This document shows, in pieces, positions 39,501 through 60,281 of a stretch of 64,000 nucleotides of DNA. The stretch is from Dictyostelium discoideum (Eukaryota): assembly GCA_000004695.1 (NCBI GenBank), contig CM000154.2, positions 4,224,001 to 4,288,000 of the forward strand, read 5' to 3'. Position 1 is the first letter of the stretch, and the number at the start of each line of letters is the position of its first letter. Made by a program: the position numbers and the translations under genes. The notes beneath the pieces were generated by a model. That model had not been told where the DNA came from. It worked only from the letters and a program-made list of their open reading frames with translations, and made no database searches.

Positions 39501-41238
39501 ATTGAAACAAGGTGCAATCGGTGAGATTCTCTCTGATGCCGCCATTGACCAAATTCGTAAGGTTATTTCAGATTTGGATGGCTATAGTTTGTTCGCTGCC
39601 GCTGGTCAATTAGAGAATGATCAATCATCTCAATCAACAATGAATGAAGTTACCAAACAACAACATTTGAAAAATCTTCAAAAAGATACAATCACTCAAG
39701 CTAAATTACTCATTGTTTCAAGTTCGCAATTGGTTGGTTCTTCAAGAGGTACTCAAGAACATTTGGGTTCTGCAACTACTAAAGTTGCCAATACCGTTTC
39801 ATCATTGGTTAAAACCGCAAAAGATATTGCATCAGTTTTAGCTGATACCACATCACAACAAGATATCCTCTCTGCAAGTAAAGCATTATCTATTTCATCT
39901 CAACAAATGGTTTTGGCCACTAAAGATGCTCAACGTTTCAAAAAGGATGCTACTGCATTCCGTTCACTTGGTAAATCTGCTGAAGCTGTCGCCGAAGCTG
40001 TTGGTCAATTCCTCACATCAGTTTATACCGCTATCTCTGATGCTGGTAAAGGTATTAAAGAATTGGAGAAATCAATTGTACAAGTTGCAAACTACCACGA
40101 AAAACCAGATACTGTACTTAGCAATAAAGATGCCACTGCTGAAATTTTCGCTCAATCCGCTAGAGATTTGGCTAAATCTTCAATTGAAATCGTTACATCC
40201 TACACTTCTTCTCAAGATGATCTCGTTAAATCATCACAAGCCGTTGTTTCCAACGTTCAATCATTCATTTCCAATAGTAAAGGTGTCATTGCTTTATTGG
40301 GTAACGGTAATGATGATTTGAAATCTAAAGTTTTGGAGAATGTTAAACAAACAACTGGTGATATGTTAGCCTTGTTACAATGTGTTAAAGATCAAGATAA
40401 GAATGGTTCAACAAGTATTGCTGATGCTACTCGTTCAATCTCTGATCGTGTTCATAGTGTTGTCACTTTATCAAAATCATTACCAGGTGGTCAAAACATT
40501 GTCGTAGAGGAAGATAACGTACTCGAAGATCTTGAAGCACTCGCTGAGGATGAATTATCTGCATGTGCTAGATCCATCGAAGAAGCTACCGCTAAATTAA
40601 TTGCTGCCAGACCACAATCTAAATCTAAAAATGGTAAATTGGATGCTGAAGGTGTTGCTGCAACAATCGTAGATGCTAGTAGTGCAATTGCTAAAGCTGT
40701 TGCCAAACTTGTCAATTCCGCTGCCGTCGCTCAATCAAAGAGAAGAGAAGATCAAATTGCAAGTGGTTCAGTTTATAAAGCTGATCCAACTTGGTCAAAT
40801 GGTTTAATTTCAGCCGCTAAAGGTGTAGGTGCTGCAACTCATCGTTTAGTTGAAGCTGCAATGAAATCTGCAACTGGTAAAGCTGAAGAAGAAGAACTCA
40901 TTGCAACTGCACGTTCTGTAGCCGCTGCAACTGCCTTATTAGTCTCTGCTTCTCGTGCTAAATCTGGTGATGACTATCAATCTCAAGCTGCCCATTCACA
41001 TCTTTCAACTGCAGCTAGACAAGTCGCTTCCGCTACATCTGATCTTGTAGCTGCTGCTAAAGCTGCAACAATCTTTGACGAACAACAACAAGAAGAAGAA
41101 CAAGAACAATTCAATTTCACTGGTTCAAAAGTAAAAGAATTAGAACAACAAATGAAGATTCTAAAATTAGAAAAAGAATTAGAAACTGCAAGAAGACAAA
41201 TGTTAAATTCAAGAAAACAAAATTATAATAAAAATTAA
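33563..41238 (+). CDS. talA: talin A (filopodin)-like; FERM head plus long helical rod plus C-terminal I/LWEQ actin-binding domain; reading frame contains one in-frame TAA at 37594..37596
   Basis: Exons are 33563..33953 (MSISLKINIVGANTVKTLRFAPD…, donor GTAAAT, phase 1), 34074..34347 (…KFFFNDANIDRNDPVQLHLLFVQCRDGIIEG…GFL, donor GTAAGT, phase 2) and 34422..41238 (…LKDYLPLQWLKSKGVEKDIF…RYVQLCRSLKTYGMTSFDVK…IKRWAATDKSFTLDFGDHETEY…; C-terminal I/LWEQ block …ATARSVAAATALLVSASRAKSGDDYQSQAAHSHLSTAARQVASATSDLVAAAKAA). No villin-headpiece tail is present, hence the talin A type. Frames 34507..37596 and 37651..41238 are the same frame, separated only by the TAA. Confidence 0.85.
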
Positions 41239-41294: not shown

Positions 41295-42800
41295 TTAATT
41301 TTTTATTTTTGTAAATTTTGCAATAAAGAAACCAATTGTACCAATATTTGAATCTGATGGATCAAATCTTGAAACTAATTTACATTGTTGTTCAGTCAAA
41401 CCACAATTTGGTAGACCTGGTTGAGAGATATGAGGAATTTGTGGAATTAATTTCATTTCTGGATAATTATTTAAAAGATATGAAACATTTAATTCATTTT
41501 CTTCTGGATTAATTGAACATGTTGAATAAACTAAAATACCACCTGGTTTTAATAATGAAACTGCTTGGTCAATTAATTTCTTTTGAAATTCTGATGAATT
41601 TGTTAAATCAACTAAACTACTTGATTCAATTAAACGTGGACGTGATCCAAGTCCAGAACATGGTCCATCTAATAAAACTTTATCAAATGAATTACTTTGA
41701 AATCTAATTTTATCCAATGGATCTTGTTGATTTTCTTTTGTTAATTTTGATGAATCTTTTGCTAAACATGTTACATATTTATCTAATGATAATCTTTTAC
41801 ATAAATCAATAATCTTTTTAACTTTTCCTTTATTTTTATCTAATGCAAATATTTCAGTTTTAATTTCATTATTGTTTTGATATTTTTGATTATTTTGATT
41901 ATTATTAATTTCAAATTGTTGGATTAATGATGCAATTAATGTAGTTTTACCACCTGGAGCAGCACACATATCAATAATTTTATCACCTAATTTTGGTTCT
42001 AATTGATAAACTGTATAGATTGATGGTAAATGTTGTAAAAACATTTTATCCTCTAATACTGAATTTAAAGGTGGACAAACATATAATCTTTCAGTCATTT
42101 CAATTGCAACACCAACTCTAGTTTGATGATAATCATCTCTATCCAATAAACTTATACCATTACCAATGAATGCACATTTCTCTTTGAAACAATCTTCAAA
42201 TATTTCACCTTTCGAAACTCTGCTATCAATTGTTACAAATACTGATACCATATTACCTTTTTTAATATATTTATTTGAACCTAATACACCAATTGAAAAT
42301 ATATTACTACCCCTTAATACTGCTTCACCACAAATTAAATCAACAATAATTTGTGGATAAATTGGTTTTGGTATTAATGGTCCAATTGTTTTTATAAATA
42401 TTGTATCTTTTGAAATTTGATTTTTAATTTCATCATTATTATCATTATCATTATTATTATTTTCAATATTATTTAAAATATCATTAAATGATTTAAAATT
42501 TGTAAAAATTTCTTGATTTTCTATTGATTTTTCATTGGTTTTGAAATGATTTGAAAGGTCAATTAATAATTTATCTTTATTGGTATTCATTGTATTAACT
42601 CTGATTGTTGTATATAAAAAAGTTTGAGTCATTGATTTTTGAATTCTTTCCATATGTTCTTTTCCATAATATTTAATTAAATGATTAAGTACTTCAATAT
42701 CTTTAAATTCCATTAAACATTCATTTGTATATTCATCATCTCCAATTTTCTTAAAATTCATAATTTTCATTTCATTTAAAACATGATTTAAATCTTTCAT
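41295..42800 (-). CDS. NOL1/NOP2/Sun-family RNA (cytosine-C5)-methyltransferase with PUA domain (NSUN6-like), single exon, 501 aa
   Basis: PUA-like segment IIVDLICGEAVLRGSNIFSIGVLG. SAM-binding motif DMCAAPGGKTT, motif IV LDGPCSGLGSRP (catalytic Cys) and motif VI GGILVYSTCSINPEENE. Convergent with the talin 3' end, with a 56-bp gap. Confidence 0.85.
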   Translation of the reverse strand: MKDLNHVLNEMKIMNFKKIGDDEYTNECLMEFKDIEVLNHLIKYYGKEHMERIQKSMTQTFLYTTIRVNTMNTNKDKLLIDLSNHFKTNEKSIENQEIFTNFKSFNDILNNIENNNNDNDNNDEIKNQISKDTIFIKTIGPLIPKPIYPQIIVDLICGEAVLRGSNIFSIGVLGSNKYIKKGNMVSVFVTIDSRVSKGEIFEDCFKEKCAFIGNGISLLDRDDYHQTRVGVAIEMTERLYVCPPLNSVLEDKMFLQHLPSIYTVYQLEPKLGDKIIDMCAAPGGKTTLIASLIQQFEINNNQNNQKYQNNNEIKTEIFALDKNKGKVKKIIDLCKRLSLDKYVTCLAKDSSKLTKENQQDPLDKIRFQSNSFDKVLLDGPCSGLGSRPRLIESSSLVDLTNSSEFQKKLIDQAVSLLKPGGILVYSTCSINPEENELNVSYLLNNYPEMKLIPQIPHISQPGLPNCGLTEQQCKLVSRFDPSDSNIGTIGFFIAKFTKIKN

Positions 42801-48923: not shown

Positions 48924-50935
48924 CTATATTTCTTTAATAATTTCTACAGATTCATCTAATTTACAAATATCTAATGATTGATTAAAATTATATTGTAAAA
49001 TAATTTTTGGTATATGTTTGGGTATTGATCCTTCAATTAGTGGTGTATTCATTTCTCCTAATGTTAATTGCTTTATTGAATTTGGAATGATTCCTGGTGT
49101 TAGTTGATGTTTGAATCCTCCATAAATACTGAGATATGTTACAGAATTTGGTATTGAATTTATTTCTAATGATTGTTTAGTACCATTTAAATATAAGAAT
49201 TTCGCTCCATCACTAATTATACCTGGTGTTATTAATTGATCGAAAACATCATTGAAATGTAAATTAGTGACTGATTTAGGAATTGATCCAACAACTAATG
49301 GTGATTTAATATTATAGAAGTATAAATATTTTACACTTTCTGGTATAATACCTGGTGAGAGTAATTGTTTAAAACCATCATTAAACGTAATTGATTCAAC
49401 TGAATTTGGAATTGAACCAATCTTTAATTCACTTTTAATATTATTTAAACTTAACTCTTGTATACCTTCAGGTATCAAAGAAATGGTACCGATTGATAAT
49501 GGTTGATTAAATCCATTTTGTAAACAAAGATAAGATACAGTTTTAGGAATTGATCCAATCTCTAATGAATGTTTGATATCTCTTAAATTCAAATATCTGA
49601 CGCTCGAGGGAATAATACCTGGTTCTAGTGATTGGGAAAATCCATCACAAACATGCAAATGATTTACAGAATTAGGAATTGAACCAATCTTTAATGGCTT
49701 TTTAATGTCGTGTAGATATAAATATTTAGCCCTCGAAGGAATAATACCAGCTTCAATTGATTGATTAAATCCATCATGAAATGATAACCACCCAACACGT
49801 GATGGTATTGATCCAATTACCAAGGGTGTTTTAATATCATATATATCTAAATATTCAATACCAAGTGGTAATACACCTGGTTCTAAACTTTCTTTAAATC
49901 CATCTAATAATATTACATGCCAAAAATTTTTATTTGATTTAAGTTTTAATAAACTACCGCACTCTTCTCCAAGTGCAATTTTAACATCATCTTTTGGTAA
50001 TTCACTGTTCTCTGAATATAAATAATACTTTTCACCACTACCAAATTCTATTTTTAAAATAAAATGTTAATATACTTTTATTATTTACATATATACTTGT
50101 AATTAAACATACTTTTTATAAATTTATAATTATTTTCATCAGTTTCAATCTTAAATTTTTCATTTAATTCATTATTATTTTTATTATAATTATTATTATA
50201 ATTATTATTATTATTATTATAATTATTATTAATAAGTTCATATATTGATTCTAAATTATTTTTAATTTCATCAATTATTTGATTATTGAATTTAATGATT
50301 TGATTATTATATTCTTTTAATTTATTTTGATTATTGATATTTATATTATTTTTTAATAACAATAATGATTGTTGATATTGTTTAATTAGTTCAATTGTAT
50401 CAGTACCTTTATGATAACCAATAATATCTTCATCACCATAATCATAATCATTATAATTTTGTTGAATATTTTTTATTGAATTGTTTAATTTATCAATCAT
50501 TGGGTTATTATTATATTTATTACTATTATTATCAATATTGATTGAGGAGGTAATAGTTGCATTTATTAATGTATTTTCTTGGAAAATTGTTTCTAATTGT
50601 TTTTCGATATCTAATTCAAGTATTGAGAGTATGTGATGAAGTTTTTTAAATTCATCTTTAAGTAATTTTTTATTTTCATCATTTTGTAATTGAATTTCAT
50701 TGAAAATTTCATTGGAATCTTTTAATGTTTGTTTATTATCTCCAATTCTTTCAAGTAATTTCGGGTAAACATCGTCTTTAAAATTATTCATCATTGAAAG
50801 AATGTTTGATATTGATATTGGTTCTAATCCATGACGATGATGAGAACCATTACTGGATGCACATAAAATACAACATGGTATTAATTTACAATCTAAACAT
50901 AAAAGTTCAACATTTTTACTTGGATGGATTGAACA

Positions 50936-50986
<51 letters not shown>

Positions 50987-51001
50987 TGTTAATGATATCA
51001 T
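48924..51001 (-). CDS. B-box zinc finger plus coiled-coil plus FNIP-repeat protein (intact unit 1 of a tandem array), two exons, about 670 aa
   Basis: Exon 1 is 51001..50113 (MISLTNNNN…[42 protein letters not shown]… is a B-box-type C/H cluster, followed by coiled-coil, ending …NNYKFIK, donor GTATGT, phase 1). The intron is 65 nt (50112..50048). Exon 2 is 50047..48924 ([22 protein letters not shown]… then FNIP repeats GSIPxSV..L.F.DGFNQ…). The only boundary pair that keeps the frame was chosen; a GTAAAT/49-nt alternative would create a stop. Confidence 0.7.
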
Positions 51002-53975: not shown

Positions 53976-56282
53976 ATGATTAATATTGAAGATATTTCAA
54001 AATCTTCAAACCAAAGTGAAGAAAAACAATTAAAAAGTACAAGTTCAAAACCAAAATACTCATTCGCAGCAAAAAGTTTATTCAAAGGTTCAAATAATAT
54101 TACACCATATTATTTATCAACCAGTAATACATTCCAATGTGTAGCATCTGAGTCAATTCAAACATGGCTTCTTTCGGATGATGGTCATATCTTTACATCC
54201 AGTGGTAATTTTGTTTTAGATGTTTCATCAGGTGGTTATTTTGTTGAATTAGTACAACTTAATTCAAATTCAAAAACTCAAATTTGGACAATTGATACAA
54301 CAAATAATAAAATTCAAAACCAAGGTAATGGTAATTACCTTGATATCGACTGTTTCAATATTTGTGTTGCACCTTTAAATGGAAACGCAACTCAACAATG
54401 GACAACTTTTAGAAGAGCACCAATTCCAACTGGTAATTGGGGCTACTTTCAAAGTGAACAATTGGGTTCAAATAATTATTGGGGTTTAAGTGTATTAAAT
54501 AATAGTACATCATATAATACTAGTGTAGTAATGAATAAAGTTCAAGCAAAATCAAAAGGTCAAATTTGGCAAATGACAAGCGATGGTCACATTTTATCAC
54601 GTTTGGATGGTAATTTAGTATTAGATATTGGTCCATCAATTAATGGTAGTACAACAAACTATTATTTAAATACCAATGTTTACAAAGCAAATGATCTAAT
54701 GCAACAATGGGGTATCAACGAAAATAATCAAATATTCAATCAATATTATCCAAATTTATGTATTGGATTCGTTGGTCAACTTGGAGTTGATTCAACTGTT
54801 AATTGTGTATTAGCTCAACCAAGTAGTGCTTGTGATACTTGTTTCCAATGGATTGCAAATCCAACCTATTCATTAAACCAAATTGTTAGTGAAGTACCAG
54901 AACCATTTCCAGCTTACACAAGTGGTGATTTATTAGCATCATATCAATACCTTAGTAATGATGCAACTTCTAATTTTACTGATGATATTAGATCACTTTA
55001 TACAGGAATCAATGTTAGTTTACAATCCTTTTTAAGTATTGTCACCAATGCAACTTGTCCATCATCAATTCATTCAACTGAAGATTTTTCAAATGTTCAA
55101 AATCAAATCAAAACTGAACTCATCTATGCAATCGATGTCCGTTTAGTATTTGAAAACTATTCTGGTTTTTATAGTAAATTATTTAGTCAAGGTAGTTCAA
55201 ATTTAACAAATTTAGCAAATTTAATTAATGTTGATATGTCATCTAATCAAATGGTTAATGCAAATTATACTGATGCAATTACTAGTATTTTTTATTCACT
55301 TATTTCAGAGATTCCAGTAGGTGGTTCAATAATTGCAAACATTGGTCAATCAGCAGTAGAATTTGGTGAATTAATGTCTCAAAGTAATTATCAAGGTGCA
55401 TCAACCTATCAAGTTGAATTAAGTCAACTCTACACTCATTTAAATACAAACTATGAAAATGAAATGGCAAATGCTCAAAGTATGAAGGATACCATTTTAC
55501 AAGATTGGGGTATGATGAGTAAAACTTATGCATTATGTTTCTTACCAACCAATGATCCTTCCTCTCTCAATATGAATGGGTTAGACTTTGAAAAAATTTC
55601 AGATGTTGCATCTGTAGCTTACGAAATTGCAATGATTCAAATGTTATTACCAACTACTTATCAAATTTACTTTACATCAGCTGGTTATTGGGTACCATAT
55701 TCAGATGGTGATTTCGCTTATAGTGATAACTCTGGAACCTATATTATGGCCACTATCAAGTATAGTAATTCTTATCCTCCAAAGGAATTGACTGATAAGT
55801 TATGGAATAATGGGGTTTCAAAACAAGAATTTTTCTTGTCAGCTTATGGTTGGAATTTAGCTACCTCGCTCACCTACTACAATACTACTAACCAGTATAG
55901 TAATATCTTTAAATTAGCCTTTCCAACAATTAAAAATTTTACAGGAGTACCAATGCAATTTGTAATGACCAATGATGGTGATAATCTTGGTAATTTCACA
56001 GTCAAAACTCATTTTGCAAAATTCTTTTCAACATATTACAGTGTTGGAGATCTTGGTCATCATTATTTCGACATTGCTGTAACTGATATTAACAAAAACA
56101 AGGTTGCAAATTTCACAGTTGACATTAAATTAAAAGCTCTCGAAGGTAGTTATGTTTCAATCAAAACTGGTTCATTAGTTGTTCAGCCAGGTTATGCTGT
56201 TGGTAATCCAATTTGTAATCAAGGTAGTTATTCTCTAATGTTTTCTGCTTCAATTTTAATTCCAATTTATAAATCAGAATAA
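53976..56282 (+). CDS. ricin-B-type (beta-trefoil, QxW) lectin domain protein with large C-terminal helical plus beta domain; possible toxin-like protein, 768 aa
   Basis: Single ORF. Residues about 40..330 contain repeated QxW lectin signatures (QIWTI, QQWTTF, QIWQM, QQWGI, FQWIANP) spaced as in tandem beta-trefoils. The C-terminal roughly 440 aa has a predicted helical region followed by a beta-rich tail (…[59 protein letters not shown]…). No obvious signal peptide. Confidence 0.65.
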
Positions 56283-56399: not shown

Positions 56400-56780
56400 T
56401 TGGATGGTGAAAAGAAAATGATCCCCAATAATAAACTAGTAGTAAATAGTTGAGTTATTATTTATTATTTATTTTTTATATTTTTTTTAAAAATGATTTA
56501 ATTGAAAAGGAAATTCTATGGGTTTGTAAAGTTCCACTGCCATGATGAACATTGAAACCCACAACATTGCATTCTAATAATGAATCATGTTAGCACCAGT
56601 ATCAATATTATTGATTATTTGAAGTGAGTTGTTGAGTTTGGCCTAATCATAAACCAGGTACACATAGTTTATCAGTGAAGGAGGCGTTTGGATGATTGAT
56701 TGTGTTGTTGGTTGAGATGAATCGAAAAGATTACCTTAGTAGCTGATAGAGGTGTTGAACTATTACTACTATATATTATT

Positions 56781-56846
<66 letters not shown>

Positions 56847-57590
56847 GCATTATTTACCAAGTATAAATCCTTTTGAATTGAATTAATAGTCTCATTGCTC
56901 CACGATAATTGGCAGTAGAAGTGGCGATTGACTACTATAATCAGAATCCTAAATTTTTTGTCTTGAAATAGGTGGTGTTGTTGCTTGTGTTTCTGTTACA
57001 AATAAATTTGTAATAATTAGAACAAAGGAAATTACCACCAATATCAATAGCCTTGAGAAGGTGGATCACTAGTTCTACATAATTGATGAATGGAATAACA
57101 AGTATGAGTACGGGTATACCCAGAACGACTAACAGAATCAACGGCGGAACAAACTTTTTGTTTTAGTTTACATCGTGGACAACCATAGCATTACGAATGT
57201 AGAACTATGGTGGATTATTAAAGATATCAAACAATGGATGTCTTGCAGGGTATACGTTGATACAACTGAAGTGACTTGGATACGATCAGGTTTCTCCAAA
57301 CAAATCCAATGATAGATTGCGATGTTTTAAATTTATTCTTCATATAAACCATATGGTTGAAAAGATTGTTACAGATTTACCACCTGTGATAACAATGGGT
57401 TGCATCAATCAACTTCAGAGCGTAGATTTCATGAATTCTCTGGCTTGTTGAGATTTTGTCTCATTTTCTTTTTCAGAGTTACCATTTACTGGCTAGATTC
57501 GAAGAGTAAGAATTGATTCATGAGCTGCAATTGTTTCGATTGTGATGCTGGTGATTTGATATTGTTGTTGATGTTGTAGTTGATGTTGAA
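56400..57590. other. about 1.1-kb GC-richer (roughly 38-40% GC), homopolymer-free, ORF-less island; possible foreign/TE-derived fragment or non-coding transcript
   Basis: Composition shifts abruptly from >85% AT to mixed sequence with no poly(A/T). Stops occur in all six frames (longest ORFs 62 and 66 aa). Contains a (TTG)22 microsatellite. It abuts, at 57596, a copy of the array's promoter-proximal element exactly where a gene body would be expected. Confidence 0.4.
56782..56847. repeat. (TTG)n microsatellite, about 22 units
   Basis: Seen directly within the GC-richer island. Confidence 0.9.
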
Positions 57591-58559: not shown

Positions 58560-59702
58560 TTGATCCTTCAATTAGTGGTGTATTCATTTTCCTAATGTTA
58601 ATTGCTTTATTGACTTAGTACAGTAGTATAATTTTGTATTATTCTATATTTCAATTTTTTTTAATAATTTCTACAGATTTATCTAATTTACAAATATCTA
58701 ATGATTGATTGAAACTTCTTTGTAAAATAATTTTTGGTATATTTTTGGGTATTGATCCTTCTATTAGTTAGATCAAAGAAATGGTACCTGATATATCTCA
58801 ACTTTAAAACTCTGACACTTGAGGGAATAATACCTGGTTCTAATGATTGGGAAAATCCATCACAAACATAAAAAATATTTACAGAATTGGGGATTGAACC
58901 AATCTTTAATGGCTTTTTAATGTCGTGTAGAAATAAATATTGAACACTCGAAGGAATAATACCAGCTTCAATTAATTGACTAAATCCATCATAAAATGAT
59001 AACCACCAAACACTTGATGGTATTGATCCTTTTACTAATGGTGTTTTAATATCACATATCTCTAAATATTTAATACCAAGTGGTAATACACCTGGTTCTA
59101 AACTTTCTTTAAATCCATCTAATAATATTACATGCTTAATATTTTTATTTGATTTGAGTTTTAATAAACTACCACAATCTTCTCCAAGTGCAATTCTATA
59201 ATTATCTTTTGGTAATTCACTGTTCTCTGAATATATATAATACTTTTCTCCAGTACCAAATTCTATTTTAAATTAAAATGTTAAAATAATTTTTTTATTT
59301 AAATAAATACTTGTTATTAAACATACTCTTTATAAATTTATAATTATTTTCATCAATTTCAATCTTAAATTTTTTACTATTATTATTACTATTATTATTA
59401 ATAAGTTCATATATTAATTTTAAGTTATTTTTTATATCATTAATTTTTTGATTATTGAATTTAATGATTTGATTATTATAATTTTTTAATTTATTTTGAT
59501 TATTGATATTTATATTATTTTTTAATAACAATAATGATTGTTGATATTGTTTAATTAGTTCAATTGTATCAGTACCTTTATGATAACCAATTATATCTTC
59601 ATCACCATAATCGATATCATCATAATTTTGTTGAATATTATTAATATTTTTTATTGAAATATTGAGTTTATCGATCATTGAGATATTATTATTTTTACTA
59701 TG

Positions 59703-59737
<35 letters not shown>

Positions 59738-60176
59738 CATTATTGATTGAAGAGGTTATATTTGCATTTTTTGATGAGTTTTCTTGGAATCCTGTTTCTA
59801 ATTGTTTTTCGATATCTAATTCAAGTATTGAGAGTATGTGATGAAGTTTTTTAAATTCTTCTTTGAGTAATTTTTTATTTTCATCATTTTGTGATTGAAT
59901 TTCATTGAAAATTTCATTGGAATCTTTTAATGTTTGTTTATTATTTCCAATTCTTTCAAGTAATTTTGGATAAACATCATCTTTAAAATTATTCATCATT
60001 GAAAGAATGTTTGATGTTGATATTGGTTCTAATCCGTGACGATGATGAGAACCATTAATGGATGTACATAAAATACAACATGGTATTAATTTACAATCTA
60101 AACATAAAAGTTCCAAATTTTTACTTGGATGAATTGAACATTTTTTATTTTTATTATTATTATTATTATTATTATA

Positions 60177-60224
<48 letters not shown>

Positions 60225-60281
60225 TGCTAATGATATCATAATATAAATTAAAAAGGTGTGATAATTTTTTCTATTATTCAA
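58560..60281 (-). pseudogene. array unit 3: B-box/coiled-coil exon intact (59295..60281, 328 aa) but FNIP-repeat exon internally deleted/decayed
   Basis: B-box [24 protein letters not shown]…[42 protein letters not shown]… has the same GTATGT donor and AATAG acceptor as unit 1. The downstream exon keeps the first few FNIP repeats (59230..58800), then jumps to the terminal …[14 protein letters not shown] block with stops. It might still encode a truncated protein. Confidence 0.45.

Follow-up and report, generated by a model that had tools for sequence, protein, structure and literature searches.

What does the long open reading frame (ORF) at positions 53976 to 56282 of a 64,000-nucleotide stretch of Dictyostelium discoideum DNA (GenBank assembly GCA_000004695.1, contig CM000154.2, positions 4,224,001 to 4,288,000; hereafter the window) encode, and does its product, as was proposed in a preliminary description made from the sequence alone, join a lectin head to a toxin-like body? 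The ORF is cupH, an intact and solitary paralogue of the Cup family. Its product is, according to motif searches and a structural model, made of three modules, i.e. tandem ricin-type beta-trefoils, a helical body of ~335 amino acids (aa) that includes an apolar hairpin, and, at the C-terminus, a beta-sandwich with the aegerolysin/actinoporin fold. Profile searches indicate that the family defined by the C-terminal half is not dictyostelid-specific. Most likely, the helical body and the sandwich are an ancient and widespread payload that has been joined to interchangeable lectin heads in soil bacteria, a yeast and dictyostelids.

The identity of the gene is beyond doubt. The ORF begins with ATG and encodes 768 aa without any internal stop, a single-exon gene of identical extent is annotated on the public version of this chromosome, and the translation exactly matches D. 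discoideum AX4 XP_635652.1 (UniProt Q54FW5, "Putative calcium up-regulated protein H"). Since this translation matches the catalogued CupH and the Cup family was published, the gene is already known; databases have listed gene and family ever since the time of the AX4 genome and of the Cup paper of 2004. It was Coukell et al. (2004, Eukaryot Cell 3:61) who described the family, CupA-J. CupH belongs to the same 90% cluster as CupB and CupG, to which it is 95–99% identical, and shares 65–97% identity with 16 Cup proteins, both halves being conserved alike. Over the C-terminal half, identities of 65–94% are also seen with 13 other full-length Cup proteins of the D. discoideum group of species. 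CupH thus appears as a member of its family without any sequence-level difference, with the same two ricin domains and a C-terminal half of the same length.

The lectin head was correctly recognized from the start. The Pfam family Ricin_B_lectin (PF00652) matches CupH in two stretches (52.4 bits for a cut-off of 29, E 7.7e-14), and a search of PDB sequences aligns the ebulin B chain with aa 55-220, in agreement with the double trefoil that had been claimed. The preliminary description also mentioned at least five QxW motifs in beta-trefoil spacing. Five are present in aa 1-295 while 0.59 are expected from shuffled sequences (P = 1.5e-4), at aa 62, 102 and 140 in the first trefoil and at aa 196 and 243 in the second, where a degenerate FQW (aa 290) occupies the next position; this spacing fits two three-lobed trefoils. 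The hydrophobic-L-D-hydrophobic motif, with the Asp of the sugar site, is kept in three of the six lobes (VLDV at aa 80, YLDI at aa 121 and VLDI at aa 215), and carbohydrate binding is predicted on this basis.

For the C-terminal 473 aa, no match was obtained in Pfam, in NCBIfam or among PDB sequences. Their organization was approached by modelling. An AlphaFold2 run based on an alignment of 8 sequences (seven Cup proteins and one metagenome protein) gave a predicted local distance difference test (pLDDT) of only 45, and a version based on 103 sequences, with a pLDDT of 91.9 and a predicted template modelling score (pTM) of 0.90, was used instead. The modelled half (~470 aa) is helical and then beta-rich, as had been anticipated. 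In domain numbering, to which 295 is added to obtain protein numbering, helices are found at 22-35, 54-62, 73-109, 111-121, 187-213, 216-225 and 243-265. Two strands (131-134 and 183-186) bracket a helical hairpin (136-150 and 152-172), and the last helix is followed by a small mixed region and then by a beta-sandwich at about 335-471.

In the model, the sandwich can be superposed on solved aegerolysins and is of the aegerolysin/actinoporin type, a resemblance of fold that is not detectable in sequence. The Aegerolysin profile (PF06355) matches neither CupH nor 69 relatives (E ≤ 1) nor 23 isolated sandwich domains (E ≤ 10), permissive Pfam scans of the same 69 relatives and 23 sandwiches place no family on the C-terminal half, and a sandwich profile compared with PDB sequences yields chance matches only, with no aegerolysin among them. 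The helical body has no domain-level match when the model is compared with PDB folds, and its fold is without solved counterpart; its profile also gives chance matches only among PDB sequences. A fold search against the viral models of BFVD returned nothing significant.

Within this body, the hairpin stands out. Domain positions 132-170 (aa 427-465) are the most hydrophobic and least charged stretch of the family, with a mean Kyte-Doolittle value of 1.1-1.3 and ~6% of charged residues; for the best window of 17 residues, the median over the family is 1.64, and 96% of the members reach at least 1.2. Conservation, scored over 101 members of the 103-sequence alignment, reveals a Pro-Gly turn between the two helices, including a conserved P152, and a face of Asn and small residues on the second helix (A/G159, N160, A/G165, N167, A/G169, domain numbering). 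The hairpin thus has transmembrane (TM)-grade hydrophobicity, and hairpins of this kind are found in alpha-helical membrane-inserting proteins.

The distribution of the family was examined by several searches. A word-indexed search with CupH retrieved one distant relative, the metagenome protein P0014 (in its longer form P0019, 811 aa), and the same kind of search with the helical-body alignment retrieved 3 proteins only. P0019 aligns with CupH from end to end, the two being 28% identical over the lectin part and 27% over the body; its 6.8-kb contig, with a guanine-plus-cytosine (GC) content of 50-55% and a LysR regulator gene adjoining that of P0019, points to a bacterial source. A HMMER profile of the C-terminal half was then compared exhaustively with 1.84 billion cluster representatives and recovered 483 clusters at E ≤ 1e-3, including 236 at ≤ 1e-10 and 73 at ≤ 1e-30, and genomes were scanned for relatives with a 12-sequence alignment. 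The owners include other dictyostelids (Dictyostelium purpureum, D. dimigraforme with divergent paralogues, Polysphondylium violaceum and Heterostelium album), the yeast Lipomyces starkeyi and many bacteria, i.e. Methylovulum/Methylobacter, Pseudomonas kilonensis, P. brassicacearum, Lysobacter, Streptomyces, Streptosporangium, Nonomuraea, an alphaproteobacterial metagenome-assembled genome, Candidatus Binatia and Acidobacteriota. None of the Cup-like proteins of these named owners has a functional name. The carbohydrate-binding domains of Cup proteins are said to appear dictyostelid-specific (PMC3188802); this does not hold for the whole architecture, since full-length relatives occur in bacteria and Lipomyces.

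The heads of these relatives vary while the body is kept. Among 69 relatives scanned, Ricin_B_lectin was found in 32 (41 with lax thresholds), RicinB_lectin_2 in 23 (35) and B_lectin in 4 (5), the bulb-type B_lectin head replacing the ricin-type head and being present in Pseudomonas and Lysobacter relatives. This swapping of ricin-type and bulb-type heads, together with the patchy spread over soil bacteria, a yeast and dictyostelids, counts in favour of the toxin-like interpretation put forward at the outset. The sandwich is present in 44 of the 148 representatives listed, whereas 91 cover only the first ~335-380 positions of the profile. N-termini resembling signal peptides were found in 14 of the 148 and in none of the sandwich-bearing ones.

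Three large proteins, P0055 (1505 aa, from Candidatus Binatia), P0074 (1170 aa) and P0080 (1823 aa), carry the helical body only (profile positions 1-331) and no sandwich. P0074 and P0080 have N-termini resembling those of secreted proteins or lipoproteins, and no Pfam family was detected on the regions that follow their bodies. The existence of such large body-only bacterial proteins implies that the helical body is a mobile module used in several architectures.

Seven bacterial loci were inspected for a recurring partner or immunity gene. None was found beside the Cup-like genes, the apparent matches being shadow ORFs that overlap the gene in GC-rich DNA, and the 64-kb window around cupH likewise contains no MACPF or other pore-forming partner gene. 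As no neighbour gene recurs, the Cup-like protein appears to be self-contained.

The modules of CupH lead to a tentative mechanism, the most likely of those considered, whose chances as a whole are put slightly below even. CupH would be made as a soluble protein without signal peptide and would dock on a membrane through two coincident contacts, the lectin head binding glycans and the sandwich a specific lipid. The apolar hairpin of the helical body would then engage or perturb the bilayer, either as an anchor or, in the strongest version, within an oligomeric pore. The parts of this proposal are not equally solid: the sandwich probably has some membrane-binding role, while true pore formation by CupH is rather unlikely. 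The analysis establishes which gene this is, its domain architecture, the folds, their conservation and the range of organisms with relatives; lipid binding, insertion of the hairpin and any lytic, antibacterial or defensive activity are suggestions drawn from the architecture.

Parallels are found among binary toxins. Aegerolysins recognize particular membrane lipids and bring in a distinct pore-forming protein, the gene of which is often adjacent (PMC9505663), and the aegerolysin sandwich Cry34Ab1 acts on membranes with Cry35Ab1, whose beta-trefoil head bears QxW motifs (PMC4229197). This Bacillus thuringiensis pair has the same list of parts as Cup, but the Cup parts lie on one polypeptide, so that Cup could be viewed as a single-chain counterpart of lectin-plus-aegerolysin binary toxins. 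The differences are nevertheless substantial. Aegerolysins (PF06355, e.g. Cry34Ab1, ostreolysin A6/pleurotolysin A and RahU) have no detectable sequence relation to the Cup sandwich and are free-standing proteins of ~15 kDa, or more broadly of about 13-20 kDa, whereas the latter forms the C-terminal end of a chain of 87 kDa without recurrent partner gene nearby. The middle module of Cup is helical, unlike the aerolysin-like beta-sheet domain of Toxin_10 proteins, whose profile does not match. Actinoporins, grouped here with thermostable direct hemolysin, consist of a single 20-kDa domain whose own N-terminal amphipathic helix enters the membrane, whereas in Cup the helical part is a distinct body of 335 aa and lectin heads are present.

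Other families were also considered for comparison. Aerolysin, ETX-MTX2 and Toxin_10 have no Pfam match in CupH or the 69 relatives and are absent from the top structural matches, and the helical and beta parts of Cup match neither domain I nor domains II/III of three-domain Cry toxins (Endotoxin_N/M/C) by profile or fold. The toxin-like architecture initially proposed is thus supported in part: it stands at the level of fold and modules, because a lectin head, an apolar hairpin and a sandwich of toxin fold were found, while the named folds (Cry domains I and III, aerolysin/ETX-MTX2, Toxin_10) and a signal peptide were not. With the colicin pore domain, Cry domain I and ClyA/Hbl/Nhe, Cup shares only a concept, that of an uncharged TM-grade helix-turn-helix of ~40 residues held in a soluble helical domain. 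LlpA-type lectin-like bacteriocins of Pseudomonas consist of tandem bulb-type lectin domains only. The relatives from P. kilonensis, P. brassicacearum and Lysobacter have a bulb-type head like these bacteriocins but differ from them by a single lectin region fused to a Cup body, and killing activity is known for none of these relatives.

Several observations weigh against a membrane-inserting or toxic role. No signal peptide or classical TM segment was detected by hydropathy over the 768 aa of CupH, because the N-terminus is not hydrophobic (mean Kyte-Doolittle value of -0.97 over the first 40 aa) and no 19-residue window exceeds 1.44; the secretion evoked in the preliminary description is thus not indicated. 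The helical body resembles no known alpha-pore-former, neither fold nor sequence relating it to a solved member of the colicin, ClyA/Hbl/Nhe, Cry6 or Cry domain I types. The hairpin could equally be a hydrophobic core. In a hydrophobic-moment test for amphipathic helices that might shield it, only helix 187-213 is clearly amphipathic (z 4.1), unlike the other long helices. Furthermore, Cup proteins are reportedly cytoplasmic, and the phenotype associated with them is said to be developmental and not toxic. Lastly, R44, Y47, E86 and D215 of the domain (R339, Y342, E381 and D510 of the protein) are invariant and could mark the site of an enzyme or of a ligand.

This last point is the starting point of an alternative in which the helical body would have an enzymatic or ligand-binding function, for example the modification of glycans or lipids, and would be delivered to a surface by the lectin head and the sandwich, the hairpin being its hydrophobic core. 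These four positions, together with W216 (next to D215), Q82 and Q260, are invariant or nearly so across ~100 relatives that share 20-30% identity, a pattern that often marks active sites, and the 91 listed relatives that keep the body without the sandwich include some large secreted multidomain proteins with signal peptides, which are common for enzymes acting at surfaces. However, no enzyme family was matched in Pfam, NCBIfam, PDB sequences or PDB folds, the invariant polar residues could equally hold a metastable soluble form closed through salt bridges, and the Asn/small-residue face of the hairpin would be more usual where helices pack together than in a catalytic site. This explanation is considered improbable.

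In the main rival of the membrane-docking mechanism, Cup proteins would be cytoplasmic lectins without lytic activity, working on the membranes of the amoeba itself like discoidins, comitin or DdCAD-1. Induced under Ca2+ stress or in early development, they would use the sandwich and the hairpin as a peripheral anchor at the inner face of the plasma membrane and their trefoils to bind glycoconjugates, with a role in stabilizing or organizing membranes or in cell adhesion; their likeness to toxins would be a matter of shared ancestry or fold only. In the original description, Cup proteins reportedly move from the cytoplasm to the cell membrane in Ca2+ stress and aggregation, and antisense cup RNA is said to block aggregation; the reported move to the membrane would also suit the membrane-docking mechanism. 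The lack of a signal peptide and a DdCAD-1 match are in line with this rival. The regulation of the genes is too: PMC1431509, citing Coukell 2004, presents the Cup genes as regulated by Ca2+/calcineurin, GtaC was found bound upstream of cupF in starving and early aggregating cells (PMC4506546), and cupB, cupC, cupF and cupG are strongly induced in chronic hypoxia alongside Ca2+-related genes and discoidins (PMC12750705). Cup proteins are also grouped with discoidin and comitin as cytoplasmic lectins whose ligand is unknown (PMC3188802). However, the same source reports that discoidins exit by a non-classical route, so that release is possible without signal peptide. A role confined to the amoeba's own membranes also leaves unexplained the occurrence of the same full architecture in bacteria and a yeast devoid of aggregation development, the swapping of lectin heads on a kept body, and the combination of fast evolution (dN/dS, the ratio of non-synonymous to synonymous divergence, of ~0.5) and lineage expansion, which is more typical of conflict or defence proteins. 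This rival is regarded as rather unlikely.

A third alternative is that cupH, whatever the family does, is a redundant and effectively non-functional recent duplicate. The gene is a solitary copy, at ~4.39 Mb on a 5.29-Mb chromosome and 1 Mb from cupB, which is in tandem with another cup gene; its product is nearly identical to CupB and CupG, UniProt labels it "Putative", and the literature searched yielded no expression data specific to cupH. However, a 768-codon ORF remains intact in AT-rich DNA, where stops arise easily, and non-synonymous changes are fewer than expected under neutrality, with a dN/dS of 0.55 between cupH and cupB (48.5 non-synonymous and 22.5 synonymous differences). Relative to both cupB and its tandem neighbour, the ratio is ~0.5 in the helical body and the sandwich. 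Together with the intact ORF, such values imply constraint with fast evolution rather than decay; redundancy is very unlikely, and the reading of cupH as a pseudogene was rejected on the same grounds.

Synonymous divergence is not uniform along the cup paralogues. Between cupH (53976-56282) and the genes at L009:10001-12310 and L009:14043-16352, dS is ~0.03 in the lectin half and 0.23-0.32 in the C-terminal half, i.e. about ten-fold lower in the lectin half, where the counts are small. This suggests that gene conversion may homogenize the 5' half of cup genes while the body diverges.

The membrane-docking mechanism can be extended to the whole family. The C-terminal half of Cup would then represent a cross-kingdom family (at least 483 clusters) of self-contained, lectin-targeted proteins that insert into membranes or form pores by means of a helical fold without solved counterpart, one of which was inherited or acquired long ago by dictyostelids and expanded into the Cup proteins. 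This broad version is speculative and rather doubtful. If it is true, Cup proteins would be amoebal toxin-like effectors, or domesticated toxins devoted to the amoeba's own membranes, and Ca2+ would induce them when membranes are injured or attacked. If a lipid-binding sandwich, the apolar hairpin and the bacterial and yeast relatives are confirmed as their key features, Cup proteins would have to be seen as toxin-derived membrane-active proteins and no longer as Ca2+-regulated lectins. Soil microbes would then have a new family of membrane proteins targeted by lectins, which might be relevant to conflicts between amoebae and bacteria and to the discovery of pesticidal proteins. Two points appear to be new, namely the fold assignment of the C-terminal half and the cross-kingdom family, as no description of either was found in the literature searched. 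Twenty years on, Cup proteins are still without a mechanism, and the sandwich, the hairpin and the relatives with interchangeable heads are to be taken as leads rather than as a demonstrated function.

The genomic surroundings of cupH (Table 1) were initially described as an accessory-like neighbourhood, within an array of FNIP and B-box genes next to a foreign-looking island. The FNIP and B-box neighbours are real. The island, i.e. the GC-richer stretch at ~34-42 kb, is the talin gene, which is normal host coding sequence, so that nothing there suggests an accessory element; the surrounding DNA is AT-rich and Dictyostelium-like (GC 0.14-0.36). The accessory-like character of the gene itself is not retained either, as it is the annotated cupH, from a family presented as Ca2+/calcineurin-regulated (PMC1431509). 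In a neighbour-joining tree without support values, the dictyostelid sequences form one clade, within which the Cup proteins of the D. discoideum group are a tight recent expansion. Such a single clade implies that the family is old in Dictyostelia, without recent transfer at the cupH locus. Recent horizontal transfer at this locus was rejected on the basis of this clade and of the identity of the supposed foreign island as talin.

Table 1. Modules of CupH and neighbouring features, with positions in the window
Feature	Residues (aa)	Positions	Strand	Basis or remarks
N-terminal hydrophilic tail	1-45	53976..54110	+	Kyte-Doolittle profile
Ricin-type beta-trefoil 1	46-150	54111..54425	+	PF00652 best stretch, aa 52-142; QxW motifs
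Ricin-type beta-trefoil 2	151-295	54426..54860	+	Second Pfam stretch; ebulin B alignment to aa 220; motifs
Helical body	296-630	54861..55865	+	Long helices, some beta elements; conserved core of the family
Hairpin (helix / Pro-Gly turn / helix)	427-467	55254..55376	+	Family hydropathy and conservation
C-terminal beta-sandwich	631-768	55866..56279	+	Aegerolysin/actinoporin fold (model)
Retinoblastoma-like gene		29966-32182	-	DUF3452 and RB_A; flanks talin
Talin gene, two long ORFs		34507-41235	+	PTB/IRS, talin rod and I/LWEQ domains; GC 0.32-0.36
RsmB/F-type methyltransferase gene		41298-42800	-	Flanks talin
FNIP-repeat ORF		48927-49823	-	Six repeats, E 8.6e-61
B-box zinc-finger ORF		50084-51001	-	Domain match
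B-box zinc-finger ORF		59298-60281	-	Domain match

Some minor observations concern the bacterial loci and the vicinity of cupH. A gene encoding a YhcG/DUF1016 PDDEXK nuclease lies near the Cup-like gene in two of the seven bacterial loci (L001:1-264 and L002:11944-12720), and at the second locus the R subunit of a type I restriction system is found immediately downstream. These neighbours may reflect a variable or defence-island setting, or a coincidence. The Cup-like gene of the alphaproteobacterial metagenome-assembled genome matches as two separate pieces when ORFs are compared (L007:5686-6192 and L007:7472-8416), and it may be interrupted or frameshifted, or may carry an insertion. Just downstream of cupH, a 62-aa ORF (56672-56860, minus strand) includes more than 20 consecutive Thr codons. 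It is a simple-sequence tract as is usual between Dictyostelium genes, and is probably not a gene itself.

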